DNA of 64,000 bases. It comes from Dehalococcoidales bacterium (GTDB lineage Bacteria > Chloroflexota > Dehalococcoidia > Dehalococcoidales > UBA5627). A program made the position numbers and the translations under genes. Every line of letters starts with the position of its first letter. The stretch's first letter is position 1. The stretch covers positions 47,261 through 111,260 of the forward strand of contig DAOUFJ010000030.1 of assembly GCA_034429935.1 (NCBI GenBank). Reading direction: 5' to 3'. The notes beneath the pieces are model-generated. The model saw only the letters and a program-made list of their open reading frames with translations, made no database searches and was not told the DNA's origin. Below are positions 6,661 to 51,535 of the stretch, piece after piece.

Positions 6661-6834
6661 CTAAGGAGCTTTTTGTTGAGTTATCTCTTCTTTAATTTCT
6701 TTTTTAGGTAATGATGACAAAACCTGTTTTAATGTTCGCCAACAAGTTGCAATTAGAACTAAAGCAATGCCCACCACTATTGCTGATGAGTTAAAGATTA
6801 TTGCAGTAAGTTGTTCAGAAGCTTCCCAGGTCAA
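6661..6834 (-). CDS. possible small membrane protein (57 aa, TTG start)
   Basis: Own translation: (M)TWEASEQLTAIIFNSSAIVVGIALVLIATCWRTLKQVLSSLPKKEIKEEITQQKAP. A GGAGGA lies 6 nt upstream of the TTG. It has one TM helix and lies downstream of ftsK. Confidence 0.3.
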   Translation of the reverse strand: MTWEASEQLTAIIFNSSAIVVGIALVLIATCWRTLKQVLSSLPKKEIKEEITQQKAP

Positions 6835-6881
6835 AACATTCCTCCATTAAATTTTAGAATGCAATCAACCTTATCTCTCCC

Positions 6882-9359: not shown

Positions 9360-9384
9360 AGCATTTCACCATCCCGGTATGACC

Positions 9385-11055: not shown

Positions 11056-11057
11056 TT

Positions 11058-11681
11058 TTAAACCTCGAACATATTTAACTGTTTTGCAACGGGCTCAGAT
11101 TCCTTTTTCTCTTCCTTTGCTTCCACGGAATTTTTACTCTGGGCGATATATCCGGGAAGCTTGAGAAAATCAGCCTTGATTACGTCTTTTAAGTTTCCCT
11201 GATGCAGCGCTGCCGCCGGGTGGTACATGGCAACGTAAAGCACGCCATCCCTTTTCTCAGCAGTGCCATGAATTTTACTGATGCTCTTCTGCGGAAAGAA
11301 CATGGCCATGGAATAGCGGCCCAGAGTTACTATTACCTTGGGGCGGATAATCTCAATCTGTTTGTTCAACCATTGACGGCAGTTAAGTATCTCCTGAGGC
11401 AACGGGTCACGGTTAGCCGGAGGACGGCACTTGATAACATTGGCGATATAGACCTGTTTACGATTCAGATTGATAGAAACCAGCAGTTCGTCCAGGAATT
11501 TACCTGCCGGCCCTACGAAAGGACGCCCCTGCTGGTCTTCATGAAACCCGGGGGCTTCCCCGATAAACATTATTTCAGCATCTTCTGCGCCTTCACCCGG
11601 TACGACCTTGATTCGGGACCGGGCAATCTCACATCTCTCACAGCACCTAATATTCTCATAAAGCTCGCTAAGCGCTGACAT
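11058..11681 (-). CDS. uracil-DNA glycosylase, family 4 (Fe-S type)
   Basis: CERCEI..., FIGEAPGFHEDQQGRPFVGPAGKFL and HPAAAL motifs. Confidence 0.9.
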   Translation of the reverse strand: MSALSELYENIRCCERCEIARSRIKVVPGEGAEDAEIMFIGEAPGFHEDQQGRPFVGPAGKFLDELLVSINLNRKQVYIANVIKCRPPANRDPLPQEILNCRQWLNKQIEIIRPKVIVTLGRYSMAMFFPQKSISKIHGTAEKRDGVLYVAMYHPAAALHQGNLKDVIKADFLKLPGYIAQSKNSVEAKEEKKESEPVAKQLNMFEV

Positions 11682-37418: not shown

Positions 37419-38012
<594 letters not shown>

Positions 38013-38014
38013 TT

Positions 38015-38200
38015 TTATTTGTTATACTCCTTTTTTGATTTACGTCCTCCTCCTAATTTTCTTTGTCTACAATAATTTAGTTCCAATACTACCCAGTCTC
38101 TAGCCAATTTAACTCCTTTAATTTCACCTTTGGCTAATAACCGCCTTACTTGACTGGTGTCTAATCCTAGCTTGATAGATGCTTCTTTTACACTATACAT
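38015..38200 (-). CDS. excisionase-family helix-turn-helix protein (Xis-like)
   Basis: MYSVKEASIKLGLDTSQVRRLLAKGEIKGVKLARDWVV is the excisionase/MerR-type HTH_17 pattern. 61 aa. Confidence 0.7.
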   Translation of the reverse strand: MYSVKEASIKLGLDTSQVRRLLAKGEIKGVKLARDWVVLELNYCRQRKLGGGRKSKKEYNK

Positions 38201-38206
38201 AGTTAT

Positions 38207-38230
38207 ATTATACCTGTATACAGGTATAAT
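38207..38230. promoter_or_regulatory. 24-bp perfect palindrome (ATTATACCTGTA|TACAGGTATAAT) in the divergent promoter region of element B
   Basis: It lies 7 nt upstream of the xis-like start and contains TATAAT (38225-38230) facing the 38307 gene. Confidence 0.5.
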
Positions 38231-38306
38231 TTCAAGGCAAAAATGAAGAAAAATTTATTGCCATGTATATTGTGTATCTGATGTATCAAATAGTATTATT
38301 ATCACT

Positions 38307-39011
38307 ATGGAAGAAAGCGAATATAAGAGAACAAAAGCTATATTAGATACGGCTAAGAAAAGAGACGTTCCTGACTTTGAGCATACATTAGATATGCGTA
38401 ATGAATGTATTAGATTATTAATGATAAATTTGGTTCAATATCGACCTTTCATTGAGAGGATGAATCAATTAAGACTGAAATATGAGAAATGTGATGAAAT
38501 AAAGGAAAGACCATTAGCTTCAATAGAATCTCTGAGTCAATCTTTCCAAACTATGAAAAAGCAGGCACAGGAATATCTTAAAGATATTTCATCAATTGTT
38601 AGTGATTATGGTCTTAATCCTGATTGGGCAAGAGAACTAATACATGAAGGTATTAATGATTTTGATTCATTAGCTACTGGATTAGATTGTAAAACCATAG
38701 ATGAAGAATTTAGTTTTAATATAACTTGGAATACAGAAAAATTGTCTAGTAAAAAAGAAGCCTTTGCACAAGTAAAAGAGCAATTTAACGAACAATGGGA
38801 TTTATATGAGCAATATTTAAAAAGTATTGGATTTAACAAAAGAAGAAAAAAGGGAGCATTAGGAAATCATGTTATATGGACTTTTAAGAAAGTATGTTTG
38901 CATATGGCATGGCATGAGTTAGCTCAAGACGAAGGTTTATTAAACGCAGAATCATTAAGGAAACCAGTTTATCAAATTATTAAATTATTAGGGCTTAATT
39001 CTACTAATTAA
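38307..39011 (+). CDS. hypothetical protein (element B)
   Basis: 234 aa, helical, no family recognised. Confidence 0.55.
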   Translation: MEESEYKRTKAILDTAKKRDVPDFEHTLDMRNECIRLLMINLVQYRPFIERMNQLRLKYEKCDEIKERPLASIESLSQSFQTMKKQAQEYLKDISSIVSDYGLNPDWARELIHEGINDFDSLATGLDCKTIDEEFSFNITWNTEKLSSKKEAFAQVKEQFNEQWDLYEQYLKSIGFNKRRKKGALGNHVIWTFKKVCLHMAWHELAQDEGLLNAESLRKPVYQIIKLLGLNSTN

Positions 39012-39144
39012 AGAGATAGATGCCTAAGAATAAAGTTAAACTTCAGCATCATATCTAATTAGAGAATATAATTATCTCCTATAGCGTCAAGGATTAAAAA
39101 TCATATCTATACATTCGGAGAAATATTAAGGCATATAAGTTAAT

Positions 39145-39267
39145 TTATTTGCGTTTTTTGGGCTCAGTAAACTTCGGCAATTCTACGCCATCGCCTGATC
39201 TATCAGGTTTGCCACTCTTAGTTATTCTAGGCGGATTACCTTGTTTTTGTGTCGGAGTTCCTTTCAT
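39145..39267 (-). CDS. small basic ORF (40 aa) with a strong SD, not in the ORF track
   Basis: Own translation: MKGTPTQKQGNPPRITKSGKPDRSGDGVELPKFTEPKKRK. AAGGAGGA lies 5 nt upstream of ATG 39267. Confidence 0.45.
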   Translation of the reverse strand: MKGTPTQKQGNPPRITKSGKPDRSGDGVELPKFTEPKKRK

Positions 39268-39409
39268 TTTGTCCTCCTTGTTAAAAAACAAATCCATTGT
39301 AGCATAAATTCAAAACGATATACTATCAAAGGTGGGTAATTTTTTATTTATCTCTTTTTCCCAATATTACTACTGAAAAAAGTATGTTAGCCTTTTATTA
39401 AGGTGAAAA

Positions 39410-40375
39410 ATGGAAAAGAAGAAAACTGTATATGAAATACATTCTGGTAAAAGTGCTATTGAATCAGATATTCCAGAAGTAGACTATATTATCGAACAAA
39501 AGCTAAGACATCAAGCCAAGATTGCAGTAATAGGAAAATGGAAAACTGCAAAATCATTTTTAACTATACAGCTAGGTATGGCTATTGCTTCGGGTAATGA
39601 TTTTCTAGGATTTAAAACCACACAAGCCAATGTTCTGTATGTCAATTTTGAAATCTCAGAAGAGATGTTTGCTCAAAGAATACAGGATATGAATCATGCT
39701 CTTAATTATAATCTTGATAATTTTAATTATTTAACCATTACTGACCTTAGCTTGGATTTGCATACACAGGAACTTGAGGAAATTCTGACACAATGTATTA
39801 CTGAGGGATTTAATGTTGAAGTTTTAATTATTGACCCTAGATGGAAAGCGGTTAAAAGAGACAGTAATCAGGATGAAGTAATTAACGCCTTTTGTACACA
39901 CCTTGACCAGATTATTCAGAAGTACAAATTGGCTGTCATTGTTGTTCATCATGAGGGTGCTAGTACATCCTCAGATAAAGCTGGTAAAGGTAGCACGGTC
40001 TTTGATGCTTGGCTTGATGGTTGGTTTAAGATTAAACCACAGTCTTTAGACAATAAAGTAAGAGAAATAGATGTGTGGTCTAGAGATAGTGAAAGAGAAA
40101 CCATTATAGCTACCTTTAAATATCCAATTCATGAAGTGTCATCAAACATGGTAGCAGAAAGAAAGGCAAAAACGGATAAAGCTAAATTAAGCATACTTGA
40201 ATTCATTAATTCGGGAAGTAAACCGGAAAAGGAGGTGAGATTCTATGTACTAGGTAAGGGACATACTGACTATGCTTACTGGAGAGCGAGGTCAGAATTA
40301 TTAAAAGAAGGAATAATTGAAGTGGAAAAAGCTTCAGGTCCAGGAAATAGAAAAATCATTTCATACAAGAAATAA
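39410..40375 (+). CDS. RecA-fold ATPase, AAA_25/RepA-like (replication/helicase-loader type found on integrative elements)
   Basis: IAVIGKWKTAKSFLTIQLGMAIASGNDFLGFKT (Walker A variant), VLIIDP (Walker B), VIVVHHEGAS..KGSTVFDAW. Confidence 0.65.
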   Translation: MEKKKTVYEIHSGKSAIESDIPEVDYIIEQKLRHQAKIAVIGKWKTAKSFLTIQLGMAIASGNDFLGFKTTQANVLYVNFEISEEMFAQRIQDMNHALNYNLDNFNYLTITDLSLDLHTQELEEILTQCITEGFNVEVLIIDPRWKAVKRDSNQDEVINAFCTHLDQIIQKYKLAVIVVHHEGASTSSDKAGKGSTVFDAWLDGWFKIKPQSLDNKVREIDVWSRDSERETIIATFKYPIHEVSSNMVAERKAKTDKAKLSILEFINSGSKPEKEVRFYVLGKGHTDYAYWRARSELLKEGIIEVEKASGPGNRKIISYKK

Positions 40376-40395
40376 ACTAGAAAAGGAGATAATAA

Positions 40396-40701
40396 ATGAG
40401 TTTTGCATCTTATTTAAAGCGGGGGAAAAATTATCCTACACTTACATGTGATACTTGTGGACAACCAATTCAAGATGTTACCTCAGCTATAATAACATTT
40501 AAAGATTTGAGCGGATGTCCAATAAGCCATGCGACTGGCATATATCACAAGGTTACATGTGACCCTGGTCATGAAGTTCAGCCTTATTGCGATGAACTTC
40601 AAAGCTACTTGTGCCAATTAGTTTTTAACTTAAGGCTAGGAAGAGTAGTAAATAAAAATAGTAAGCAAATAATCATTGATATTCCACAAGATGAACTATA
40701 A
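40396..40701 (+). CDS. hypothetical protein (element B)
   Basis: 101 aa, SD AAGGAG upstream, CDTCGQ motif. Confidence 0.5.
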   Translation: MSFASYLKRGKNYPTLTCDTCGQPIQDVTSAIITFKDLSGCPISHATGIYHKVTCDPGHEVQPYCDELQSYLCQLVFNLRLGRVVNKNSKQIIIDIPQDEL

Positions 40702-40995
40702 ATTATAAGGGTTTTTAAAATAGAAACTGCAGTTTCTTAAAACTATTTGATTGAATATTATATATTAAGTAGATATTTCGGGTCTCTAGCATTTTTGTCA
40801 AATGTTCAAATATTTGATTATTTGATTATTTTTTATAAGAGTCCGTTAAAAAGAATTCTAGCTTTGACTTATTAACATTTTAGAATTATAACAGCACAAG
40901 ATATATACATTGTATCTGTTATTGATTTAGGTTTATATTTAAGCGGCTAGTTAGCTATTTGACAATATCAATAGCAGTCTATTAGGGTAAAAATC

Positions 40996-41304
40996 TTAAT
41001 ACCATCCTTGTCCGAATAGTGATTTAAAAACACCTGTAATAGCGGTTATCCCACCACCTATTATGAGAATCCACCCTAAAACAGGCATTGTGACTTGATA
41101 ATAAGCGCCATCCCTCAATTCAGTATAACCTTCAAATCCCGTTATATAGCCGACATATATAATAAATCCACTAATTACTAATGCAAATAAAAACCCTAAT
41201 AACCGCCATAAACCACCTTTTTCAGCACAACTCTCCGCGACAAATTTAACCAAGGTAAAAAGAAATATAAAGGGGAGTAAAATTAACCAACCAAAAAATC
41301 TCAT
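40996..41304 (-). CDS. small membrane protein (3 TM)
   Basis: 102 aa, hydrophobic. Confidence 0.5.
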   Translation of the reverse strand: MRFFGWLILLPFIFLFTLVKFVAESCAEKGGLWRLLGFLFALVISGFIIYVGYITGFEGYTELRDGAYYQVTMPVLGWILIIGGGITAITGVFKSLFGQGWY

Positions 41305-41516
41305 AATGACGTCACTCCTTAAATATCTATTTCCCTTTATTATGGGTTATGACAACTCCCTCCCAACCAGTTAAAATAGTCTAAAAAGAAGTCTTTTTGG
41401 GTTTTGTTTAACTATGCTAACCCTTTTGCCTATAGCTAGGGGTAGTTCGGTTATATAGGTTAATAAAAGTGTATATATAAATATCACAATCACGGCTCTC
41501 ATAAACGGATTTTATT

Positions 41517-41984
41517 CTAACTTACACGCCAGGTCCATTTTTTTTCAATGATTCCAGTCTTGCATTTCGGGCAGGTTTTATCAACCATCTCTATCACTGT
41601 TTTAACATTTTCTGATTTGCACTTGGGGCATATTCTTTGATCTCTCCTTTTATTAGTTCCATATGAGTGAAACATGCTGTATTTACAATAATAATATCGC
41701 ACAGATCTGTCATTGTTATCTTCAGCCCCTTCATCGTCGCCTATGTCTAATTCGAACTGGTGCAAACAGTTCAGGCAGACACAATCCGAATTGTAGCCTG
41801 TTCGATCTAAAATCATTTGTTTAGTCGCTTTTTTGCCAAGGATTTTACGAATTGTTCTGCCCTCATCGGGATGTGGGCAAACGATTCTTTTTCCGTTATC
41901 ATCAATTACATAAAGATATCCGCCCCAACCTTGCGGCAGGGAGAAATGACAGTTATTGCATATATAATCGTTTATATCTGGCAT
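41517..41984 (-). CDS. hypothetical multi-zinc-ribbon protein
   Basis: CNNC..CPH, CLNC and CPKC..CPKC pairs. Confidence 0.5.
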   Translation of the reverse strand: MPDINDYICNNCHFSLPQGWGGYLYVIDDNGKRIVCPHPDEGRTIRKILGKKATKQMILDRTGYNSDCVCLNCLHQFELDIGDDEGAEDNNDRSVRYYYCKYSMFHSYGTNKRRDQRICPKCKSENVKTVIEMVDKTCPKCKTGIIEKKWTWRVS

Positions 41985-42238
41985 ATTCTAATATCCTTAT
42001 TTAACCTACCATTGATTACAATATAAATTCTAATACTGGGCTACTGCCACTATTAACTATTCTTTTTAATATTGGTTATCACCATAATTGTTGTATTTAG
42101 GACAGAGTATTTCCTCATTACCACAAGCTTTTGTCCGCTGACCTGAACCCAATGTAATAGGCTGTTAATCGACTTTTTTAATTTTACAGCATCAATGACT
42201 ATGACAGGGTTGCAGGTAACCAGACTGCGATAGCTTTC

Positions 42239-42883
42239 CTACTCTTCATAAATAGTTACCTTCAGATATGCATCACAATACTCTAATGTCATTGGCGACA
42301 CGCTTGTCAATATTCGCAAACTATACTCGCCACTCACGGGGGCGATGAAAGCGAATTTCCAAGGATAACTTTGTATGCTTATGTCTATCATATCGCCTTG
42401 ACGACGTAAGGATTGTTTAATGGTGTCTCCAAACGGGTCTTTTACATCAGAAATTACCGGCACTGGGTTAGTAAGTGCAAACTCTTGCCTAGCTCCACTA
42501 CTAAAGGAATAGCCTTGTAAACTTACCTCTCCTTCAACTCTGCTACCGGCTTCTACCTGAAAGCGGAAAGTGCCGCTATCTAGTGCCTCTTTAACCATAT
42601 CTGAGTTGTTTAGCCATAAATAATAGGGCACTGGTTTAATATCCTTTTCTAGCACTTTGGGAGGCGTGGGGGTTAGCTCTGATGTGGCATAGGAATACTC
42701 CACTACTGTTTCTGTATACATTTCTCTTGGAGTTGAACCTGTATCAGTTGCTGTCTTTTGAGTGTAAAAAGCATAACCGAGAACAGCTCCTAGACAAAGG
42801 CTAAGGATAATTATTACCGCTATCAACAATCTGTTAATCATTTTCGGACTTCTAAGAAAGTATAATAAGCCTATAATTTTCAT
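42239..42883 (-). CDS. membrane-anchored extracytoplasmic protein
   Basis: N-terminal TM (LLIAVIIILSLCLGAVLGYAF), with a beta-rich remainder. Confidence 0.5.
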   Translation of the reverse strand: MKIIGLLYFLRSPKMINRLLIAVIIILSLCLGAVLGYAFYTQKTATDTGSTPREMYTETVVEYSYATSELTPTPPKVLEKDIKPVPYYLWLNNSDMVKEALDSGTFRFQVEAGSRVEGEVSLQGYSFSSGARQEFALTNPVPVISDVKDPFGDTIKQSLRRQGDMIDISIQSYPWKFAFIAPVSGEYSLRILTSVSPMTLEYCDAYLKVTIYEE

Positions 42884-42964
42884 TTGTCAATCCTATATAG
42901 TGTCAATTATCATCTAAATGTGCCTAATTACTTTCCGCATTTTAACATTATATCTAAATAAGGA

Positions 42965-43171
42965 GTGTTGAGAGTGGGAAGAAAGAAACCACAGAAGCAA
43001 GAAGAAAAGATTGAGCGGATATTTCTTACTTTCACCGAGGCACAAGAATTTCTAGGAGTAAGCCACCAGACTATATATAAGCTAATGAAAGAGGGTTTAC
43101 CCTCTCACAAGATAGGTAGGAAGCGGGTTTTTTTGAAGGAAGACCTTACCAAGTGGATAAAAGAGCATTAG
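42965..43171 (+). CDS. excisionase/MerR-type helix-turn-helix protein
   Basis: LTFTEAQEFLGVSHQTIYKLMKEGLPSHKIGRKRVFLKEDLTKWI. Confidence 0.72.
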   Translation: MLRVGRKKPQKQEEKIERIFLTFTEAQEFLGVSHQTIYKLMKEGLPSHKIGRKRVFLKEDLTKWIKEH

Positions 43172-43299
43172 ATTTTAATTTTGAGTAAATTCCCAGAGTG
43201 GACTTAGAAAAACAAAATATTATCTCAAAATAAGTTGACCCGTACCAATATAACATGAATACAGTCGTATTTAGCTTTAGTTTGTGAACATGTTCAGCT

Positions 43300-44118
43300 T
43301 TAGACTATAGGACTATTACCCCTATTGTTGTGAACAGTTTTAAGAGCATCCTCAAATGTTAATGAAGCTGAATAACGTTCAACCATGCTTAAGGTAGTCC
43401 ATCCTCCAAGCGTTTGTACTACTCTTGTAGATAGTCCACTCTTTACATTATGGACTGCAAAGCCTCTTCTGAAACTGTGAGGATTACATTTAATACCAGT
43501 CTTAAATGCTAATCTTTTAAGCATAGTCTGTATACCGCTAGTATCTATGCCAAAGCTATCATTATTATTAAACCATGTTTTTACTATATCATTACCACAT
43601 AAGCACTTACGATAGCGATTACCTTTACCAAGTACAATGACCGTGCCTTCCATCCAATCAAAGTCCTTAGCTTTCACATTAGCAGCTTCAGAGACTCTCA
43701 TCCCACTATGCCAAAGTAGAGAGATAATAGCTCTATCCCTTCTAGGACAAGCATTTATTAATGTTTGATATTGGGCTTCGGTTATTGCTGGAAGTAACTT
43801 CTTTTGCCGTTTTGGTGCTTCTACAAGTGTGATAGGATTATTCTCTATATGTTCATTTTTAAATAACCAATTACTTAGTGCTCTTAAGCATTTGAAGTAA
43901 TTCCATTTTCCATTTGAACAGCTTAGATTATCAAGGAAATTCTTTATACCATCAGGGCTTAAAGGATATCCAATGAAGCGTTTTAATCTCCATTCATAAT
44001 CTGAAATTGTTCTTGCAGATAAACCATTCGCTCTACTTTTTAAAAAGGCAGACAGCATTTGGCTTGTGAACAGTTGTTGTTCTTTTGTGAACACTTTGAA
44101 GCTGGAATTTGTGAACAC
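43300..44118 (-). CDS. tyrosine recombinase (XerC/D-like) of element B; candidate C-part of an att-spanning integrase
   Basis: Core-binding domain (LSARTISDYEWRLKRF) and catalytic residues in GMRVSE, GKGNRYR, HSFRRGF, LGGW and ERY. The frame stays open upstream to att copy 2. Confidence 0.9.
   Translation of the reverse strand: MFTNSSFKVFTKEQQLFTSQMLSAFLKSRANGLSARTISDYEWRLKRFIGYPLSPDGIKNFLDNLSCSNGKWNYFKCLRALSNWLFKNEHIENNPITLVEAPKRQKKLLPAITEAQYQTLINACPRRDRAIISLLWHSGMRVSEAANVKAKDFDWMEGTVIVLGKGNRYRKCLCGNDIVKTWFNNNDSFGIDTSGIQTMLKRLAFKTGIKCNPHSFRRGFAVHNVKSGLSTRVVQTLGGWTTLSMVERYSASLTFEDALKTVHNNRGNSPIV
44065..44117 (+). promoter_or_regulatory. three direct TGTGAACA motifs (44065, 44086, 44110); further copies at 37884, 43283 and 43329. 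Candidate integrase-binding sites of element B
   Basis: All six copies are in the same orientation. They flank both sides of the att core and occur in different reading frames. Confidence 0.45.
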
Positions 44119-44177
44119 TTTATGTTCACTATTGGAATGCTCAGGGGATGTTTTTAATGGATTTTGAAGCTGAATTT

Positions 44178-44222
<45 letters not shown>

Positions 44223-44338
44223 GCTGATGAATAATCTGTTATCACCTGTTTTTACGTTTGGAATCGTGATTTTTCAAAAAATCTAAAATCCATACTCAAT
44301 CGTAAAATGTTACTTCATTTTTCCCCATTATTTTCAAT

Positions 44339-44362
44339 CCGTTAGCAAATGGTTAGCAAAAA
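44339..44362 (+). promoter_or_regulatory. tandem GTTAGCAA motif (CCGTTAGCAAatgGTTAGCAAAAA), distal arm of element A
   Basis: A near-identical 24-mer occurs at 51385-51408 in the same orientation. Confidence 0.5.
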
Positions 44363-44450
44363 GTAATTATTTTAAATAAACATATTGACTATCCACATAC
44401 CTAGATGTACAATCCCTTTAAATGTATTAGCTACTAAAAAAGATTTATAA

Positions 44451-44618
44451 ATGTCTGATAACGCTAAATTACAGCAATATATAAATGAACTATCTGCCCA
44501 AACTAACGATCCTATCCACATAAGATTAATTTCTGCATACATTGGTGCGAATCCGAAAGAATCGATAGAAGAAGAACTTGGAAAGATATTAATCGAGATT
44601 ATAGAAAATGAAGATTAA
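44451..44618 (+). CDS. small acidic ORF (55 aa) overlapping the start of the ABC ATPase gene by 11 nt; not in the ORF track
   Basis: Own translation: MSDNAKLQQYINELSAQTNDPIHIRLISAYIGANPKESIEEELGKILIEIIENED. The stop is at 44616-44618 and the ATPase ATG is at 44608. Confidence 0.5.
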   Translation: MSDNAKLQQYINELSAQTNDPIHIRLISAYIGANPKESIEEELGKILIEIIENED

Positions 44619-47094
44619 TAATCTTACTATAAAGGGATTCCGTGGTTTTAATGATGAGAGAACTATTGTTTTCCATCCTAAACTTACTACGATTTATGGC
44701 CGAAATAGTTATGGAAAAACAAGTATAACTGAAGCTGTTGAATGGCTTTTTTACGGTAAGACGTCTAAAGTCGAAAAGGGAGAATCTAAAGATGAATACA
44801 AAGGTTCATATCGTAATTGTCACCTTGAAAATGACGATAGCGTATATGTAAATATTAGTCTAAATATTGATGATCAACAAACCACATATTCTGCAAAATT
44901 AATAGATAAAGATAATTACTGTAGGTATATTAATGGAGAAATAGTTGATCAATGGCCAATAGACTCTGAATCAGCTAGTATATCTAGACCTTTTATAATG
45001 CAACACGCTCTTAAGTATTTACTCCTAACCCCTCGTGATTCACGTTTTACTGGTTTTACAAAATTACTTGGATTTGATGAGTTAGATATAATACAAGCCG
45101 ATTTCATTTCGGTATGTACTAAAATTAAATCAACATTACCAACTCAAGTAACTAAATATATCTCAAATATTAATAATATTGAAAATCGATTAGCCGCTTG
45201 TTCAGATTTAAAAAATATTTATAAACTGTTTAAAAAGGGAGAAGGTTCTTTTTCTGACTTTGTTATTTGTGTTAATACTGAATGTACAAGTCGTATTCCA
45301 GTTGATACCCCAGAAGATAAAATAATACCGAGTTTGTTAAGAATACGTGATGACGCAGTAAAAAAGATTTACTCTGGAAGTATTAATTTAACTCCATTTT
45401 CTGCCAATGATAATACTAACAATTCAGCAGATTTAGAATACTTTCCAAATTATGCATCGGAAGAATTAATACAAAGTTATTGCGGATTACTTGCCCTTGA
45501 GACTTATAAGGTAATAAGTGATGAAGCTGAATTTTATCAGATTGGATTGTCATTTTTGGCAAATAATCCTTACATTTGTCCTTTCTGTAATCAAAAAACT
45601 AATGACAGCATAAATGAACATATAAAAAAGAAACACCAGGAATCAATAACTAAATCTGAAAATGCAAGGGTGTTATTAAAACAAAAACAAGAAATTCTTA
45701 CCTCATTGTCAGAATTAACTCAACGATTAGACAAATGCCAGAACAGACATATATCCAAACTGAATGCTTTTCTAAAAATTAATGATTCTTTTGAAAAATT
45801 AAATGAAATTTTATCACCAATGCATGAACCATATTTAATAGCTATCCGTGATGCAATTAAACAACTAACTGCAATTAAAAATCAATTGGATCAATGTTTT
45901 AATAATATCACTAAGTCAATAATTTCCTTACAGAATTCTATTCAGCAATCTAAAGAAGAAATTACTATAATTCAAATTCTAGGAAAAGAGCTAATAAAAT
46001 ATTCAGGGGTATTATCTTCTTCTATATCAACAATATCTCATTTTATTTCACCAATGGCCGATGCTAATGAAATACTTAAACATGAATTGGATTCTATAGC
46101 GAAGACTGAAGATATCAGTCTACTAGTAGATTTAAAGGAAAATCTTAGCCATATTAAAAAAGGTATGAGAATCAACTCTATCCTTGATAAACTACCGGAA
46201 CTAAGAAAAACAGTTGAACAGTATATTGGTTTAAAAATGTTTAACGCGGTAACAAAAGAAATGACCGATGATGTAATGTCTTGGTATAAACAAATTCGAA
46301 CTAAAGGTGATCCTGATGTGCATTTTACTGGATTCGATATGGACAAAACTAAATCAGGAGATATTAAACCAAAACACATTAAAATTAATGCCTCATCGTA
46401 TGGTAAACAACTTGTAAGTGCAGTATCATCTCTTAGTGAATCTAAGCTTAATGCACTAGGTCTTTGCTTAAGTATTGCAACTAATATGAAACCAGATTGC
46501 CCATTTGATTTCCTTTTTATTGACGACCCTATTCAATCTTTGGATGACGCCCATGGGGAACGTTTTATAGATATTATTCGAGATCTTGTTGATAGAGGTA
46601 AGCAAATAATTCTACTTTCTCATAATAAAACTTGGATTGATAGTGTTCGAAAAGGCTGTCGTTCAATTAATGGATTTTGTTATGAAATAACAGGCTACGA
46701 TAAAAATGGCCCTATAATAATTCAAGAAGATTGGTGTACTTGGAAGCAACGTCTTGATAGAATTAGTGCAATAGCGAACAATACGAATTCTAGTAGTCTT
46801 TCGCTTCAAGATGCTGAAAGTGAAATCAGACTTGCTATATCAGAAATGACTTGTACATTATACTTAAAAATAAAAAATATACGTAAAGATTCCAATAGTA
46901 TGAATTATTCTAAGGTAGTAAAATGTTTAACTGAATGTAATATTCCCAATGTTTTAACTGATTGTATTGGGCAATCATTTAATACTATTGACGACTCTCA
47001 TCATAATCCAAACTATAATCCAGACCCAGATAGGATTAAATGTTATTTAAATTATCTATATGAGTTATCTAAATACTTAAATGTCCAAATCTAA
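44608..47094 (+). CDS. SMC/Rad50-like ABC ATPase with a long helical insert carrying a CxxC motif and a ~140-aa C-terminal extension (AAA_13/RloC-like architecture)
   Basis: Walker A GRNSYGKTS (aa 31-39) and Q-loop PFIMQH. A ~440-aa helical insert carries ICPFCNQ (aa 323-329). The signature-like motif is LSESKLNALGLCLSIA, Walker B/D-loop is FLFIDDPIQSLD, and the H-loop is ILLSHN. The C-terminal domain (aa ~690-828) is uncharacterised. Confidence 0.82.
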   Translation: MKINNLTIKGFRGFNDERTIVFHPKLTTIYGRNSYGKTSITEAVEWLFYGKTSKVEKGESKDEYKGSYRNCHLENDDSVYVNISLNIDDQQTTYSAKLIDKDNYCRYINGEIVDQWPIDSESASISRPFIMQHALKYLLLTPRDSRFTGFTKLLGFDELDIIQADFISVCTKIKSTLPTQVTKYISNINNIENRLAACSDLKNIYKLFKKGEGSFSDFVICVNTECTSRIPVDTPEDKIIPSLLRIRDDAVKKIYSGSINLTPFSANDNTNNSADLEYFPNYASEELIQSYCGLLALETYKVISDEAEFYQIGLSFLANNPYICPFCNQKTNDSINEHIKKKHQESITKSENARVLLKQKQEILTSLSELTQRLDKCQNRHISKLNAFLKINDSFEKLNEILSPMHEPYLIAIRDAIKQLTAIKNQLDQCFNNITKSIISLQNSIQQSKEEITIIQILGKELIKYSGVLSSSISTISHFISPMADANEILKHELDSIAKTEDISLLVDLKENLSHIKKGMRINSILDKLPELRKTVEQYIGLKMFNAVTKEMTDDVMSWYKQIRTKGDPDVHFTGFDMDKTKSGDIKPKHIKINASSYGKQLVSAVSSLSESKLNALGLCLSIATNMKPDCPFDFLFIDDPIQSLDDAHGERFIDIIRDLVDRGKQIILLSHNKTWIDSVRKGCRSINGFCYEITGYDKNGPIIIQEDWCTWKQRLDRISAIANNTNSSSLSLQDAESEIRLAISEMTCTLYLKIKNIRKDSNSMNYSKVVKCLTECNIPNVLTDCIGQSFNTIDDSHHNPNYNPDPDRIKCYLNYLYELSKYLNVQI

Positions 47095-48415
47095 CTTTTT
47101 GTATCATTCCTTGTTCTATAATGTCTTCAGGGATACCTTTTCCCCAACTATCAATAAGTAATAATCTAGCTTTAGAATCATCTATGTCAGCGCACAATCG
47201 AGCATATGCACTGGCTAAACATCCCTTAGCTTGTTTTACTAAAGGTCTCCAATCATCGTTAACTTGTTTATGCGGAATAACGCCCTGACGCACGCCAAAT
47301 AAAGCGGAGCAATCTTGAAATGTTTTCCAGTAATCCATCACTTTGGCACGTTCCCGGCGAGTTGATGTCGCTGGATTAACTATCCTCAGAAATCGATCAG
47401 TTCCATAATTCCAGATGTCAGCTTTGCTATCCTGAAATATTCCGAAGTCCATGACACCATCGAAACGCCTTAGTCCTTCACGTCTCAATTGAAGTTCCAA
47501 CCTGGATACCGGGCTTTCACCATCCCAGCCGTTTTGAATCCATAATGGCTTTATATGCCCGTGTCCTTTTATGGCTATTTCATAGGTTTTATCGTAGAAA
47601 CGGCAGGCGATACCCCCACGCCCGAAATGATAACCCGTATTGCGAATTCCCCTTTTATAATCACCGCCGTAATAAATATCCTTATCTCTTAATCTGGTAA
47701 CTACCTGGCTTTTGCGATTTATATCCGGCAAAGGCATGATTTTATCAACACATAAATCAGCCCTTGAAACAGTGCAGTATTCTAAATAAATCCATTCATT
47801 AAGAAATTCAATTACTTCTTTATATGCCTGAATATCGCCCAATCTCCAAAGGTAGGGAGAACGAAATATTATCCTTATCTCTGGAGAAGGGTTGCCCCCT
47901 TTGGCATCAGGCATGATCTGTATTTCAATATCACCATTATTGATCACATATTCATAGCCACCTTTAGAACCATGAGATTGAATCATGAATTCTTTATTAA
48001 ACCAATCTACAGGAAACCCTTTCCTGCTCTTATACCCACCTGAAACAGCCTGTAGCTTAGCATCGCTCAATTTTTGGAACTCATAAGGGTTGATATACCT
48101 ATCTACACCAAAATTCAATTCCAGAGTGTCCACCCCAACAGCTAAGATATCCGGGTACAGTTTTTTATCGATTTTATAGCTGTTGGTGGTGTTAGCAGCC
48201 CCCGTGAGACAAGGGAACGGGGGCTGCTTATCGGGGCTATCCTCGATGCTGATTATTTCAGCTCCATATTGATTTAGCAAATAATCAACAAGGGGATTTT
48301 TACCCTGTTTGTAATCGTTATTCTCGACTATATCATCAATTTCAGCACCGTAATTATTGATAAGATAATCCACTAATGAGGATTCACCTGGTATATATCC
48401 ATTATTTTCCGTCAT
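47069..48415 (-). CDS. rolling-circle replication initiator-like protein (Rep_trans family pattern)
   Basis: VGVDTLELNFGV, SRADLCVDKI and GRGGIACRFYDKTYEI resemble the Rep_trans family. The N-terminus carries a tandem motif LVDYL(I/L)N(N/Q)YGAEI x2. Confidence 0.65.
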   Translation of the reverse strand: MTENNGYIPGESSLVDYLINNYGAEIDDIVENNDYKQGKNPLVDYLLNQYGAEIISIEDSPDKQPPFPCLTGAANTTNSYKIDKKLYPDILAVGVDTLELNFGVDRYINPYEFQKLSDAKLQAVSGGYKSRKGFPVDWFNKEFMIQSHGSKGGYEYVINNGDIEIQIMPDAKGGNPSPEIRIIFRSPYLWRLGDIQAYKEVIEFLNEWIYLEYCTVSRADLCVDKIMPLPDINRKSQVVTRLRDKDIYYGGDYKRGIRNTGYHFGRGGIACRFYDKTYEIAIKGHGHIKPLWIQNGWDGESPVSRLELQLRREGLRRFDGVMDFGIFQDSKADIWNYGTDRFLRIVNPATSTRRERAKVMDYWKTFQDCSALFGVRQGVIPHKQVNDDWRPLVKQAKGCLASAYARLCADIDDSKARLLLIDSWGKGIPEDIIEQGMIQKVRFGHLSI

Positions 48416-48758
48416 CTACCGCACCTTCAAACAAAACATTCAAATCTTTAACACTAACAAAGCAATACCGGCATAAACCATATTTCTTATTGAAATTGAT
48501 ACAAAGGAATCTATTTCTGATAACTTCTTTTGATTCATTGCTTATCCATACACGACAATTGCACTTTTTGCAATAGAATTCAGTATCAACAGAAATAGGC
48601 TTATCCTTTTTAATACCACCAACAAACACAGGAACAGGCGAGCCGTTAAACGTCTTTTCATTAGTAACTGGTTGCCAATTCTTTTCATATTCTATTTCTT
48701 GTTCATTCCGGTGATCCCTTGGATCGTCTCCATTCTCAAGATTTGTATTTCTATTCAT
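48402..48758 (-). CDS. hypothetical Cys-rich protein (element A)
   Basis: 118 aa with CKKCNC...CRYC. It overlaps the rep start by 14 nt. Confidence 0.5.
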   Translation of the reverse strand: MNRNTNLENGDDPRDHRNEQEIEYEKNWQPVTNEKTFNGSPVPVFVGGIKKDKPISVDTEFYCKKCNCRVWISNESKEVIRNRFLCINFNKKYGLCRYCFVSVKDLNVLFEGAVDDGK

Positions 48759-48787
48759 AATGTCTACTCCTTAAACTCTGTTCAGTT

Positions 48788-48823
48788 AAGGCGATGGCTG
48801 GCTTCCGCCTCCACCATCGCCTT
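48788..48823. other. GC-rich 10-bp-stem hairpin in AT-rich DNA (AAGGCGATGG ... CCATCGCCTT)
   Basis: 16-nt loop, lying between the xis and rep-side genes. It is a candidate origin, attenuator or terminator. Confidence 0.4.
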
Positions 48824-48842
48824 TTGCCATTTTCGCTTTTTT

Positions 48843-49019
48843 CTAAAGACCAATTTCATGGTCTTTAATCCATTGCTCTAAGGATACTTTGGATATCCTC
48901 AAACATCTGCCTACCCGAATACTGGGTAGTTCACCTGATGCCAGCATTTCATATACCTTAGATCTACCGATGCACAGCACTTCTTGCACTTCTTCAGGCT
49001 TTAACAATATCTTCTCCAT
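48843..49019 (-). CDS. excisionase-family HTH protein (Xis) of element A
   Basis: MEKILLKPEEVQEVLCIGRSKVYEMLASGELPSIRVGRCLRISKVSLEQWI. AAGGAGGG precedes ATG 49019 (the track ORF extends to 49133). Confidence 0.75.
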   Translation of the reverse strand: MEKILLKPEEVQEVLCIGRSKVYEMLASGELPSIRVGRCLRISKVSLEQWIKDHEIGL

Positions 49020-49042
49020 AATTCCCTCCTTTCCATGTTGAC

Positions 49043-49159
49043 AATATTCGTTTCCATGTATTATTATGTCTATAATAGTTATAACAAATAGACGTTTGAA
49101 GTGTAAATAATATTCGTTTAGACGCAATATCATACTAAAAAATTCGCTAAATATTCGTT
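49043..49159 (+). promoter_or_regulatory. three direct AATATTCGTT motifs (49043, 49109, 49150) in the divergent xis / orf352 control region
   Basis: gacAATATTCGTTtcc, aatAATATTCGTTtag, taaAATATTCGTTaaa. Confidence 0.4.
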
Positions 49160-49171
49160 AAAGGAGAAAAT

Positions 49172-50230
49172 ATGGGAGCTTGGACAACGCCAGAAGTAAA
49201 AAATTTAATTATAAAAAACTGGTTGTATTTAAAAAATAAAGGATTGAAATGTACAGCATTGGAAGTGCGTAAATTCACATTAAACGATCCGTTGGTTAAG
49301 ACTAAGAAATATACGAATATTCCCGATATTCGTGTAATTCAAAAGATTATTAAAGGAGCTAAGGAAGCTTTAAAATCCATATCAAAATCAGAAGATATGA
49401 TTGATGAAATATGGACACCAGCTTTATTAACTAAGGTCAATTTGCCTGATAATTCAGTCCCTAAAGTGGTTGATGTATGGAAATATTCCTTATGCACATT
49501 CGAAAAATTTACAGATAGACAGGCAAAATGGGCAAGTGTTTTATATCATTTTTTTGATGATATTACTCTGCTTTGGTTTTGGTCTCGTGTTTATGCAAAC
49601 CATGAATTAATTTCAATAGCTGTAGGGGAACCTAATGATACTCGTATATCTGACTCTAATGCTTTTTTCAGCCATTGGGGAAAAAAGACATTAGATGCAA
49701 CCGACTATTTTTATAAAATTAGATATGATTGGGATAACACCTTATTTCTTCCCATAGCAAATGATGGAGAAGTAATAGAGGAGTTATTACATGGAATTAA
49801 TGATCCTAATATGATGATTGTGAAAAACCTGATTAAAGATGAAGAAGAAATTAATCAAAGAGATGAAGAATTAGTTGATTTAATTCATGATTTACCTACT
49901 TTAAAAGCACTCAACTTTGATTTTGAAACTAAACTGGTTTATTTGAGATTTTTTAATTATATTCTGAAAGGTTCTAAGTGGAATGAGTTATCCGCTCAAG
50001 AAGCAATCGATATTATCAAGCAATTGAGAGCCTGGGTTATATCTAAAAAAGAGGAGATGCAAGGTAACAAAAAATCCCGCAGCGAAGAAAAAATAGATTC
50101 TTTTGAATTGGACAAAGAAAATACTATTTTTATCGAAGGAGGTATTGATGAAATATTGGATATGCCTGTTATGCCAGCGAAATTACTAAAAAAGGTTGGA
50201 TATCGGGTATGGACAGGGGGTGAAGAATGA
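49172..50230 (+). CDS. hypothetical protein (element A), ATGA-coupled to the integrase gene
   Basis: 352 aa, SD AAGGAG, no family recognised. Confidence 0.55.
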   Translation: MGAWTTPEVKNLIIKNWLYLKNKGLKCTALEVRKFTLNDPLVKTKKYTNIPDIRVIQKIIKGAKEALKSISKSEDMIDEIWTPALLTKVNLPDNSVPKVVDVWKYSLCTFEKFTDRQAKWASVLYHFFDDITLLWFWSRVYANHELISIAVGEPNDTRISDSNAFFSHWGKKTLDATDYFYKIRYDWDNTLFLPIANDGEVIEELLHGINDPNMMIVKNLIKDEEEINQRDEELVDLIHDLPTLKALNFDFETKLVYLRFFNYILKGSKWNELSAQEAIDIIKQLRAWVISKKEEMQGNKKSRSEEKIDSFELDKENTIFIEGGIDEILDMPVMPAKLLKKVGYRVWTGGEE

Positions 50231-51378
50231 GAGGACATATTACAAAAAGAGGCAAAGACAGTTACTCAATTGTTATCGAGCTTGAAAAAGACCCGATAAC
50301 TGGCAAAAGAAAACAACACTGGGAATCCGTAAAGGGCACTAAAAAAGCAGCCGAAAAAAGGTTATCAGAACTTGTTAATCAACTGGATAATGGCATATTT
50401 ATAAAACCAGATAAAACTACTTTAGCAGAATACCTTGATAAATGGCTAAAAGATTATGCATTAGTTAATTTATCCCCAAGAACCGTCGAAGGTTATGAGC
50501 ATATTATTAAACGTCATATTATTCCAGCTTTAGGGAATATCATGTTAAGTCAACTCAAGCCCGAACATTTACAAAAGTATTATGCAGATAAGTTAAAGAG
50601 CGGAAGGTTAGATGGCGAAGGAAGTTTAAGTACAAAGACAGTAAGACATCATCATGTTACTATTCATGATGCACTTCAGACAGCAGTTAAATGGGGTTTA
50701 ATTATAAGAAATCCTGCTGATGCAGTAACTCCGCCAAAACCGCAACGTCATGAAATGCATACTTGGAATGAAGAAGAGATAAATAAGTTTTTAGAAGCTG
50801 CGAAGTTAACAGAATACTATCCGATATTTTATTTGGCATTGTTTACTGGTATGCGCAGATCTGAAATATTAGCACTTAGATGGCAAGATATAGATTTTAT
50901 ATATTCTCAAATCTATATCAGCCGGAGTTTACATCATTTAAGAGACGGCAGTATTGTTATCAGACAACCTAAGACAGCTAAAAGTAATCGTAAAATAGCA
51001 ATATCGCAATCAGTATTAGCAGTTCTTGAAGAATATCGTGATAAGCAGGAAGGTTTACACTTGTTATCAGGTAACCCTTTAACCGATGATAGCTTGGTGT
51101 TCTGTCATGAAGATGGTAATCCTTTGTTACCGGATACCATAACTCATGCATGGATTAAACTTGTCAGGAAAACCGGATTAAAAAATATAAGGTTGCATGA
51201 TGCCAGACATAGCCATGCATCGTTGATGTTAAAACTTGGCATTCACCCAAAGGTTGTTCAAGAGAGATTAGGACATTCCAGTATTCAAGTTACATTAGAT
51301 ACTTATAGTCATCTTGCCCCGGGGCTTCAAGAAGCAGCAGCAGAAAAGTTTGACCAGATGCTAAATTCACATGTCTAA
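50227..51378 (+). CDS. tyrosine integrase (phage-integrase family with an N-terminal AP2-like/SAM-like arm and core-binding domains)
   Basis: MRGHITKRGKDSYSIVIEL..DPITGKRKQ (arm-binding N-domain), GMRRSE, HDARHSHAS, LGHSSIQVTLDTYSH. Confidence 0.93.
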   Translation: MRGHITKRGKDSYSIVIELEKDPITGKRKQHWESVKGTKKAAEKRLSELVNQLDNGIFIKPDKTTLAEYLDKWLKDYALVNLSPRTVEGYEHIIKRHIIPALGNIMLSQLKPEHLQKYYADKLKSGRLDGEGSLSTKTVRHHHVTIHDALQTAVKWGLIIRNPADAVTPPKPQRHEMHTWNEEEINKFLEAAKLTEYYPIFYLALFTGMRRSEILALRWQDIDFIYSQIYISRSLHHLRDGSIVIRQPKTAKSNRKIAISQSVLAVLEEYRDKQEGLHLLSGNPLTDDSLVFCHEDGNPLLPDTITHAWIKLVRKTGLKNIRLHDARHSHASLMLKLGIHPKVVQERLGHSSIQVTLDTYSHLAPGLQEAAAEKFDQMLNSHV

Positions 51379-51384
51379 TTTATT

Positions 51385-51408
51385 CCGTTAGCAATCCGTT
51401 AGCAAAAA
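51385..51408 (+). promoter_or_regulatory. tandem GTTAGCAA motif (CCGTTAGCAAtccGTTAGCAAAAA), tRNA-proximal arm of element A
   Basis: It matches 44339-44362 and lies 53 nt from the tRNA 3' end. Confidence 0.5.
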
Positions 51409-51415
51409 TAGAAAA

Positions 51416-51449
51416 GCCCCCGAAAAATAACTAATTCGAGGGCTTTTTT
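51416..51449 (+). terminator. rho-independent terminator after the integrase gene
   Basis: GCCCCCGA aaaataactaat TCGAGGGC followed by TTTTTT. Confidence 0.6.
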
Positions 51450-51460
51450 AGCTTTGAAAT

Positions 51461-51535
<75 letters not shown>

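Follow-up and report, generated by a model that had tools for sequence, protein, structure and literature searches.

What does a Rad50-like ATPase of 828 amino acids (aa) do when it is preceded by an overlapping gene for a protein of only 55 aa and is carried by a small integrative element? The question is raised by a stretch of 64,000 nucleotides (nt), here called the window, from a Dehalococcoidales bacterium of the phylum Chloroflexota (GenBank assembly GCA_034429935.1, contig DAOUFJ010000030.1, positions 47,261 to 111,260 of the forward strand). Both genes lie in element A, which is integrated at a tRNA-Met gene. We consider that they most likely form a self-contained mobile conflict module, devoted to abortive infection or defence, in which a Lamassu-type sensor with a fused HEPN effector would act together with a micro-protein, an explanation to which we give about an even chance of being right. 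The module is most likely an undescribed variant of the known anti-phage suicide systems (an earlier mention of its clade is possible), and it is set apart by an obligate micro-protein and by a HEPN domain of non-canonical type. The parts of the module are the following (ORF, open reading frame; ABC, ATP-binding cassette; AF2, AlphaFold2):

44451-44618, + strand: small ORF, 55-aa acidic micro-protein (ORF call)
44608-47094, + strand: Rad50/SbcC/LmuB-type ABC ATPase, 828 aa (ORF call)
44608-44967, + strand: N-terminal half of the ABC head, with Walker A (motifs; the AF2 model shows its beta strands and P-loop helix)
45076-46296, + strand: coiled-coil insert with antiparallel arms, about residues 157-563 (AF2 model, where long helices span 157-319 and 333-563; Rad50/SMC fold matches)
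45577-45588, + strand: CPFC zinc hook, C324/C327 (translation, conservation, Rad50 hook match)
46297-46704, + strand: C-terminal half of the ABC head, with the signature SAVSSLSESKLNALG, the Walker B/D-loop FIDDPIQSLD and the H-loop LSHN (conserved motifs)
46705-47091, + strand: HEPN-fold C-terminal domain, residues 700-828, five helices, putative effector (domain model, Foldseek, conservation)
46816-46830, + strand: Ex3R motif, E737-S-E-I-R741 (translation)
46999-47004, + strand: His-His pair, H798-H799 (translation)

A Rad50-like ATPase with a zinc hook

Translation places the Walker A motif GRNSYGKTS at 44698-44724 (residues 31-39) and the sequence YICPFCNQ at 45571-45594, with the codons of C324 and C327 within 45577-45588. 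An earlier note on this DNA, made from the letters alone, had given the same two reading frames, coordinates, overlap of 11 nt and motifs, all of which the ORF call and the translation reproduced. The ATPase looks catalytically competent, since Walker A, Q-loop, signature, Walker B (IDDP), D-loop and H-loop are invariant or nearly so in an alignment of 33 homologues. C324, P325 and C327 are invariant in all 33 sequences.

The alignment-based AF2 model of the ATPase (mean predicted local distance difference test score, pLDDT, 83.4) consists of a split ABC head, a coiled coil of about 400 residues and a five-helix C-terminal bundle, and a short beta-hairpin between the two arms of the coiled coil bears C324/C327. 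Comparison of the model with the PDB by Foldseek puts Rad50 on top, followed by SMC, cohesin, MukB and JetC. Residues 313-375 of the family profile match the zinc-hook fragment of Pyrococcus furiosus Rad50 (1l8d, E=9.4e-4) and, also by profile comparison, the C-terminal half of the head matches the C-terminal half of Rad50 heads. The earlier description of the protein as a Rad50-like, hook-bearing ABC ATPase is upheld by the Foldseek and 1l8d matches and by Pfam (AAA_23, AAA_15 and SMC_N). The note had also remarked on a likeness to RloC, which holds for the architecture; by sequence the protein is closest to LmuB and not to RloC. Its best match in PADLOC is LmuB (PDLC03859, E=7.7e-30), residues 1-698 aligning with positions 3-598 of a profile of 611. 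AAA_13 (PF13166), another of the Pfam profiles named in the note, has no match in the window ATPase at E<0.1, and the NCBIfam matches to Rad50, SMC and SbcC are sub-threshold, the Rad50/SbcC scores lying far under the cut-offs.

The C-terminal domain has a HEPN fold

The ATPase ends in a domain of about 129 aa (the earlier estimate of about 140 aa was slightly too long) that is conserved throughout the family. Modelled alone by AF2 (pLDDT 90, predicted template modelling (TM) score 0.84), it resembles HEPN proteins, which make up about 35 of the top 50 Foldseek matches in the PDB, with TM values of 0.5-0.62 and probabilities of 0.9-1.0; among them are HepT/MNT-HEPN toxins, AF_0298, a Thermus thermophilus HEPN protein, YutE, HI0074 and the prophage protein HepS. 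The fold matched is that of an effector, HEPN, and not one of the non-effector folds that the note had allowed for.

HEPN domains are four-helix up-down bundles in which core helices 2 and 3 are often separated by an insert; they carry an acidic residue on helix 2, typically within Ex3[KR], and an Rx4-6H motif ending core helix 3 (PMC3710099). The bundle with its helix 2-3 insert is present in the model of the domain. The Ex3[KR] hallmark is present as E737-x3-R741 on the long second helix, with E737 nearly invariant, and H798-H799 end the third core helix, at the position of the catalytic His of Rx4-6H. Ten residues are invariant in the 33-sequence set (R715, Q734, A736, E739, R741, E776, C777, H798, H799 and Y813), and R715, R741, H798, H799 and Y803 are still invariant in the most divergent members, at 23-30% identity. 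We interpret the domain, from its modelled fold, as non-canonical HEPN and as a probable RNA-cutting effector.

An exhaustive HMMER search of 1.84 billion representatives recovered the domain in 75 clusters (at 50% identity), all of this family, and always as the C-terminus of proteins of about 825 aa or of their fragments. Since it was recovered only at the C-terminus of these ATPases, the domain is family-specific. Three other identities were considered and rejected. Weak Pfam matches to DUF4317 among 23 of the domains (best E 1e-3) were judged spurious, DUF4145 was supported by no profile, and a fused LmuA C-terminal domain obtained a probability below 1% when compared by hhalign with the proteins in the LmuA slot of the nearest Lamassu operons.

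A conserved micro-protein precedes the ATPase

The micro-protein is encoded upstream of the ATPase in all of the 28 assessable loci (those for which sequence upstream of the ATPase is available), which belong to more than 12 phyla. In 27 of them it was recovered by a hidden Markov model built from six of the small proteins, and in the remaining one, L034, a divergent copy was recognized by inspection. The small ORF ends 11 nt into the ATPase gene, and the ATGAAGATTAA-type junctions that result are kept across phyla. The note had made its proposal depend on the conservation of the small ORF next to homologues of the ATPase, and it is conserved there with the same overlap.

The alignment has the core DP[IV]H.RL..A[YR]..[DN]P...[ML]E.EL..I..E, with H23, R25, A29, P35, E40, E42, L43 and E49 near-invariant. 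The protein is described as three-helix, and it is mostly acidic (family median isoelectric point 4.9). With a ratio of non-synonymous to synonymous substitution rates (dN/dS) of 0.06-0.17 over the non-overlapping core, the small ORF is, judging by its codons, a real gene under purifying selection. Pairwise divergence of the micro-protein follows that of the ATPase, with a Spearman coefficient of 0.59 that none of 2000 permutations reached in a Mantel test. In a profile search of the database, the homologues of the micro-protein were all stand-alone proteins of 54-95 aa without a Pfam domain. The two whose neighbourhood was checked are both beside ATPases of the family, one of the 877-879-aa subfamily included, and no partner other than this ATPase was found among the loci checked. 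All this points to an obligate partner of the ATPase, which would be made in fixed proportion to it by translational coupling.

We have considered whether the micro-protein could be a truncated LmuC, and hhalign finds no similarity to the proteins in the LmuC slot, whether those of about 210 aa or those of about 185 aa. Neither is it similar to any PDB chain, so that a Rad50-binding domain of SbcD/Mre11 was also rejected, although the positional analogy remains.

One subgroup, with ATPases of 831-832 aa, has a different junction. Here (L008, 5829-6047; L074, 6829-7047) the small ORF lacks the usual stop and is 36 nt longer, which gives a protein of 72 aa (…HREDKKPDGPRIPGIQ) and an overlap of 47 nt with the ATPase gene.

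Distribution and genomic neighbourhoods

The ATPase has more than 300 homologues, about 825 aa long, whose alignments cover 100% of its length at 42-57% identity. Such a number of full-length homologues and the purifying selection on the small ORF put the module far beyond chance. Their public names are 'hypothetical protein', 'AAA family ATPase', 'SbcC' or 'Nuclease SbcCD subunit C' and 'double-strand break repair'. When one genome per species was scanned, full-length relatives at 33-55% identity appeared in Chloroflexota, Planctomycetota, Acidobacteriota, Desulfobacterota, Omnitrophota, Armatimonadota and Gemmatimonadota, and also in Steroidobacteraceae, Bdellovibrionales, Eubacteriales, Binatia, a Candidate Phyla Radiation genome (Kerfeldbacteria) and Aerophobus. 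We have sampled 13 distinct neighbourhoods:

1: element A at tRNA-Met, in the present window
2: Dehalogenimonas element with integrase, ArdC and Fic
3: SIR2_2 and DUF3800
4: TIR/NB-ARC and NB-ARC/TPR STAND proteins with DUF1156
5: SNF2-NOV_C helicase, STAND kinase, NB-ARC/TPR and DUF1156 methylase
6: ResIII helicase with N6_N4 methylase, FtsK and HD
7: TnsD/TniQ with integrase (Tn7-like element)
8: Nitrosospira plasmid
9: Bradyrhizobium conjugative plasmid, beside AbiEii/AbiEi
10: variable spot adjoining thyX, first of two syntenic genomes
11: the same thyX variable spot in the second genome, with an integrase fragment
12: ordinary metabolic genes
13: ordinary metabolic genes

In about 10 or 11 of the 13 the module is found with mobile-element or defence genes or in a variable spot, and none of the 13 contains a partner of the SbcD/Mre11 type or a conserved third gene. 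The earlier note had considered that homologues might sit in housekeeping, for example repair, operons; the contexts found are mostly those of mobile elements and defence. None of the note's computational criteria for refutation told against its proposal of a defence or abortive-infection pair, which stands as a candidate.

The two plasmids carry a distant branch, at 32% identity (Nitrosospira NZ_AP024517, L069 3832-6454; Bradyrhizobium NZ_CP147713, L071 3829-6432). Here the LmuB-like ATPase, about 817 aa long, has a TCPMC hook and a C-terminal helical domain, its start is overlapped over 29 nt by an ORF of 65-66 aa, and a motif '...ANHQPVGY' aligns with 'DDAHHAP.DY' of the family. The Bradyrhizobium ATPase, which adjoins the AbiEii/AbiEi pair, is annotated as two coding sequences and is possibly disrupted.

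The thyX spot is shared by two syntenic metagenomic genomes (L072 and L073, about 6100-11300), in which the module lies between thyX and a block of Zn-ribbon, polyprenyl-synthase and PGK genes. The content beside the module differs, with a MarR regulator in one genome and DUF5658 plus the integrase fragment in the other, and this difference suggests a recombination hotspot.

Comparison with known systems

In Lamassu (LmuA-LmuB-LmuC; DdmABC), the sensing of DNA ends by LmuB/LmuC releases the effector. LmuC is encoded just before LmuB, as the C-terminal domain of SbcD is before SbcC, and Rad50-Mre11/SbcCD has been proposed as the ancestor of the system; LmuB variants carry zero, one or two CxxC hooks, long LmuB has a hhhhDD Walker B, the LmuA C-terminal domains of short Lamassu are helical bundles of 5-6 helices, and there are clades that have lost LmuC or the effector domain of LmuA (PMC12663957). 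The nearest relatives of our ATPases outside the family, in the genome scan, are ATPases of some 715 aa that have their CxxC close to residue 360 and lack the C-terminal domain. Their scores against LmuB, 1e-51 to 1e-55, are better than that of the window ATPase. Two genes stand before each of them, one for a protein of 460-520 aa with weak SIR2 matches and one, overlapping the start of the ATPase, for a protein of about 210 aa. From this gene content and order we read these operons as LmuA-LmuC-LmuB, i.e., three-gene Lamassu. The present module resembles Lamassu in that LmuB, over nearly the full profile, is the best defence-profile match of the family ATPase, in the Rad50/SbcC-type heads, CxxC hook and hhhhDD Walker B, in the small gene that overlaps the start of the ATPase gene in the position of LmuC, and in its location on mobile elements or in defence islands. 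It differs in that there is no LmuA gene in any of the 13 neighbourhoods, the putative effector being fused to the C-terminus of the ATPase instead; in the size of the upstream protein (46-95 aa, against about 180-210 aa for LmuC), which has no detectable similarity to LmuC; and in the C-terminal domain, unrelated by hhalign to the LmuA of the nearest operons. Because LmuA is missing, the two-gene module, going by its gene content, is not a member of Lamassu.

In Bacteroidota (loci L052-L060) we have found ATPases that are about 1040 aa long and have their CxxC near residue 530. What precedes them is not SbcD but a conserved protein of about 185 aa (KYKIEN..FSSRKI). These pairs are probably LmuC-LmuB of long-type Lamassu, in Mucilaginibacter, Chitinophaga and Pontibacter.

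The other obvious comparison is RloC. In this protein of 804 aa an ABC head and a Rad50-like coiled coil tipped by a zinc hook are joined to a C-terminal anticodon nuclease, which belongs to the HEPN superfamily and is activated by zinc-hook mutations and also by DNA breaks via the ATPase (PMC2610378, PMC3458546, PMC3874168). RloC is the best-characterised case in which an ATPase that responds to DNA breaks switches an RNase fused to it. An ABC ATPase, a hooked coiled coil and a C-terminal HEPN-type domain in one chain of similar length (828 aa) are shared by the present protein. The nuclease triad of RloC/PrrC is Arg-X3-Glu-X36-52-His (PMC2610378). As the earlier note had suspected, this spacing is absent: the domain has E737-x3-R741, then 56 residues, then H798-H799, and the only Glu after R741 is E746, at +5, which is not conserved (E/D/Q/V). 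When relatives of the window protein match AAA_13, they do so only at positions 217-385 and 530-583 of 713 (hook and Walker B), never in the C-terminal nuclease part of the profile. Also unlike RloC, the C-terminal domain forms a separate family in the HMMER search, the ATPase is closer in sequence to LmuB, and the module has an obligate micro-protein encoded upstream; RloC, by its description, regulates itself and has no obligate partner gene. Since the triad test and the AAA_13 profile test both fail, the module is RloC-like in architecture yet, by these sequence tests, not a member of RloC/PrrC. The fusion of HEPN to a hook-bearing ABC ATPase appears to be independent of RloC and to have had more than one origin.

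Toxins with small inhibitors provide a third comparison (RnlA/RnlB, LsoA/LsoB and HepT/MntA). The HEPN RNases RnlA and LsoA are restrained by small labile partners (PMC3710099). The present module has a HEPN-fold domain whose closest solved folds are toxins of the HepT type, and a small same-operon partner that is a plausible inhibitor. It differs in the partner, which is not a nucleotidyltransferase and does not resemble RnlB, in the attachment of the HEPN domain to about 700 aa of SMC-like ATPase, and in the motif, where T-x4-H-H takes the place of R-x4-6-H. Rad50-Mre11/SbcCD shares with our ATPase the head fold, the coiled coil and the zinc hook; unlike it, the module has no nuclease partner, a much shorter coiled coil, an added HEPN domain and a mobile, patchy distribution. 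Finally, the single-gene ABC ATPase candidate PDC-S06 of PADLOC has weak profile similarity at the hook and Walker B, with E-values much weaker than those of LmuB, and no model matches the C-terminal domain alone. One PDC-S06 alignment, that of L066, ran into this domain, but the domains alone gave no match and the link was discarded.

Proposed mechanism and rival explanations

We propose that the ATPase would dimerise through its hook, its heads or both, and would sense DNA in an abnormal state, for example DNA ends or the intermediates of phage replication. ATP-driven engagement or disengagement of the heads might then shift the relative position of the two C-terminal HEPN domains, which would come to form an active, metal-independent RNase site out of the helix-2 Ex3R, the invariant His-His and Tyr. 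This site would cut tRNA or mRNA, arresting translation and the infected cell, and in this way the module would act against phages. The 55-aa acidic protein could be the obligate subunit that gates the switch, most likely an inhibitor or antitoxin that keeps the effector or the heads off; we favour this role in view of the acidity of the protein, the place of its gene ahead of the ATPase gene and the precedent of RnlA and LsoA with their small labile partners. A serious alternative is that it would be a minimal LmuC-like adaptor on the coiled coil, given its LmuC position. Taken to its most specific form, the proposal would describe a hybrid of Lamassu and RloC, in which a DNA-end-sensing, hooked, SMC-like switch drives a fused Arg-less HEPN RNase (Ex3R + His-His + Tyr) and the micro-protein gates it, as a minimal LmuC or as the equivalent of the Rad50-binding helix-loop-helix of Mre11/SbcD. 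We advance this version only tentatively, as a possibility on the unlikely side.

Several observations weigh against the conflict module as we conceive it. The matches of the C-terminal domain to HEPN folds have weak Foldseek E-values (at least 0.04), and no profile match in Pfam, PADLOC, NCBIfam or PDB sequences places it as HEPN. The canonical Arg of Rx4-6H is replaced by Thr or Glu (ETTDDAHH in the family, T793-I-D-D-S-H-H in the window), and an Arg-less domain could be non-catalytic. The micro-protein has no similarity to known antitoxins, LmuC or the SbcD C-terminus (Pfam, PADLOC, PDB, hhalign). The family is known almost only from uncultured anaerobes, has no member in INPHARED phages and no real match in IMG/VR, and is nearly absent from plasmids, with two distant copies found. 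Ordinary metabolic genes surround the module in 2-4 of the 13 neighbourhoods, the thyX spot being among those counted. The missing Arg and the weak E-values would suit a Lamassu-type sensor with a non-catalytic C-terminal domain that serves for interaction or ligand binding, as do the R-less or H-less HEPNs of nucleotidyltransferases or MtlR, the effect coming from the ATPase (DNA binding or clamping, plasmid or element exclusion) or from an effector encoded elsewhere. Non-catalytic HEPN domains are indeed recorded in the HEPN survey (PMC3710099), a Lamassu clade without the LmuA effector domain exists and the 5-6-helix bundles of short-Lamassu LmuA are comparable (PMC12663957). However, the retention of R715, R741, H798, H799 and Y803 down to 23-30% identity is typical of an active or ligand-binding site, the neighbourhoods contain no conserved third gene and no similarity connects the domain with the LmuA proteins of the nearest Lamassu operons. 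Moreover, R-less HEPN families are known that are probably active, in which other conserved basic residues may substitute (PMC3710099); in our domain R715 and R741 are candidates to do so. We regard a non-catalytic domain as unlikely, although it deserves attention.

The antitoxin-first, overlapping gene order, the transport by integrative elements, a Tn7-like element and plasmids, the AbiE toxin-antitoxin pair next to one copy and the precedents among HEPN toxins would all be expected of an addiction module that stabilises its element or plasmid, with the ATPase as toxin, the labile micro-protein as antitoxin and no dedicated phage sensing. For a simple toxin, about 700 aa of Rad50-like ATPase that keep their motifs and hook intact are costly, and several copies are in chromosomal defence islands, by STAND, SIR2 or restriction-modification-like genes, with no element nearby; we find pure addiction quite improbable, even if addiction and defence are not mutually exclusive. 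Could the protein be a divergent RloC orthologue, an anticodon nuclease excising the wobble nucleotide under its own zinc hook and DNA-dependent ATPase? Architecture and size agree, the D-loop is DDPxxSxD, the conserved His comes after a Ser or Ala, which has also been noted for RloC, and some members exceed the Pfam AAA_13 gathering score (P0050, 53 bits; L069, 42 bits). Set against this, the triad is absent, the AAA_13 matches are confined to the hook and Walker B, the profile of the C-terminal domain recovers no RloC-like protein among the 1.84 billion representatives, the best defence-library profile is LmuB and RloC has no obligate partner gene, which makes orthology very doubtful. Least credible, to the point of being nearly negligible, is the housekeeping SbcC/Rad50-like repair ATPase of public annotation, for which the Rad50/SbcC fold and motifs speak together with the public names themselves. 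A repair role fits badly with the lack of an SbcD/Mre11 partner in the 13 neighbourhoods, a patchy distribution (only 75 clusters in the HMMER search), variable locations that are often mobile elements, NCBIfam Rad50/SbcC scores that are all far under the cut-offs and the presence of an extra HEPN-fold domain.

Relevance for SMC-like immune sensors

ATPases of the SMC/Rad50 type are coming to be seen as general sensors of foreign DNA, in Lamassu, Wadjet, RloC and PARIS-like systems, and only for a few of them is it understood how the sensing of DNA leads to activation of the effector. With sensor and presumed effector in one chain plus a co-inherited micro-protein, the module described here would be a minimal system for dissecting this coupling. 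If the hybrid of Lamassu and RloC proved true, it would be the smallest known two-polypeptide immune sensor-effector of the SMC type, with an unprecedented active site, and a tractable model for the way in which an SMC-like ATPase couples DNA sensing to effector activation. The family also links lineages that have been treated separately, Lamassu with its separate LmuA effector and RloC with its fused HEPN. Several annotation pipelines miss the small gene, the ATPase is labelled SbcC, AAA ATPase or orphan LmuB, and the catalogues of defence systems probably overlook this ATPase family.

Element A and its surroundings

The remaining features of the locus are:

44385-44413, + strand: promoter-like site (TTGACT-17-TACAAT), located 38 nt before the small ORF
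44177-44230, no strand: attachment (att) repeat of 54 nt, copy of the tRNA-Met 3' half (direct-repeat family)
51461-51535, - strand: tRNA-Met (CAT), target of the integration of element A (ARAGORN and Rfam tRNA)
47069-48415, - strand: weakly Rep_trans-like protein, 448 aa (Rep_trans match, E=1.5e-3)
48402-48758, - strand: 118-aa ORF of element A
48843-49133, - strand: HTH_17 protein of element A
49172-50230, + strand: 352-aa protein of element A
50227-51378, + strand: tyrosine integrase of element A (Pfam Phage_integrase, Phage_int_SAM_3, Arm-DNA-bind_4)
about 37873-44176: second element (B), bounded by att repeats

The promoter-like site matches the consensus at 10 of 12 positions, the best within 44100-47400, and is the putative promoter of a two-gene transcript. 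The total number of promoter-like sites is not above that of shuffled controls, and the support for this one is positional.

From the tRNA call and the repeats, element A extends over about 44231-51460 (7.2 kb), with the gene pair at its tRNA-distal end and its integrase adjoining the tRNA. The three copies of the att/tRNA 3' half (37819-37872, 44177-44230 and 51460-51513) are 89-100% identical, with an identical core of 46 nt. Since the tRNA-Met 3' half recurs both at 44177-44230 and at 37819-37872, there are two integrative elements in tandem at one tRNA-Met. The repeat at 44177-44230 is at once the tRNA-distal edge of element A and the tRNA-proximal edge of the tandem element. Therefore the integrase found directly upstream of the module (43300-44118) is part of the second element, and from the context it would be the integrase at 50227-51378 that mobilises the two genes. 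The att-distal cargo position that the earlier note had assigned to the pair is confirmed by tRNA-Met and the 54-nt repeats. Its claim that the pair is the only obvious non-mobility cargo cannot be affirmed in full, since element A also encodes the 352-aa and 118-aa proteins, which have no assigned function. The G+C content of the region is 29-32%, against about 45-55% in the flanks, and an Rfam scan of the region returned the tRNA and no other RNA family.

The 352-aa protein has no match in Pfam or PADLOC and a marginal one in the PDB, to PCNA (E=1e-3). Its ORF accompanies the integrase in every copy of element A, with a stop that overlaps the start of the integrase gene by 4 nt, and was not found beside ATPase homologues elsewhere. 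The gene of the Rep_trans-like protein is convergent with that of the ATPase, their 3' ends overlapping by 26 nt, and the N-terminal part of the protein is internally duplicated (…SLVDYLINNYGAEIDDIVENNDYKQGKNPLVDYLLNQYGAEIISIED…). A public contig (L002, Logan SRR17288839, 7,296 nt) corresponds to positions 44193-51488 of the window, almost exactly element A from att to att. We considered that it might be an excised circle, since its ends lie within the att repeats and share a terminal overlap of 13 nt; an assembly break at the repeats explains them equally well, and the contig is uninformative on this point.

Elements A and B each have their own tyrosine integrase beside the tRNA-proximal att and their own excisionase-like HTH_17 gene. 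Five ORFs of 101-234 aa in element B (38307-39011, 40396-40701, 40996-41304, 41517-41984 and 42239-42883) have no match in Pfam or PADLOC, and its cargo includes an AAA_25/KaiC-like ATPase at 39410-40375. The window is also low in G+C (30-43%) between 22 and 41 kb, a stretch in which an ORF of 710 aa (31881-34013) has no relative in the PDB. At 26525-29413 we have found a molybdoenzyme of 962 aa, of the pyrogallol-hydroxytransferase/DMSO-reductase family (E=1e-92 to 4v4c), and because of it the host is probably an anaerobe.

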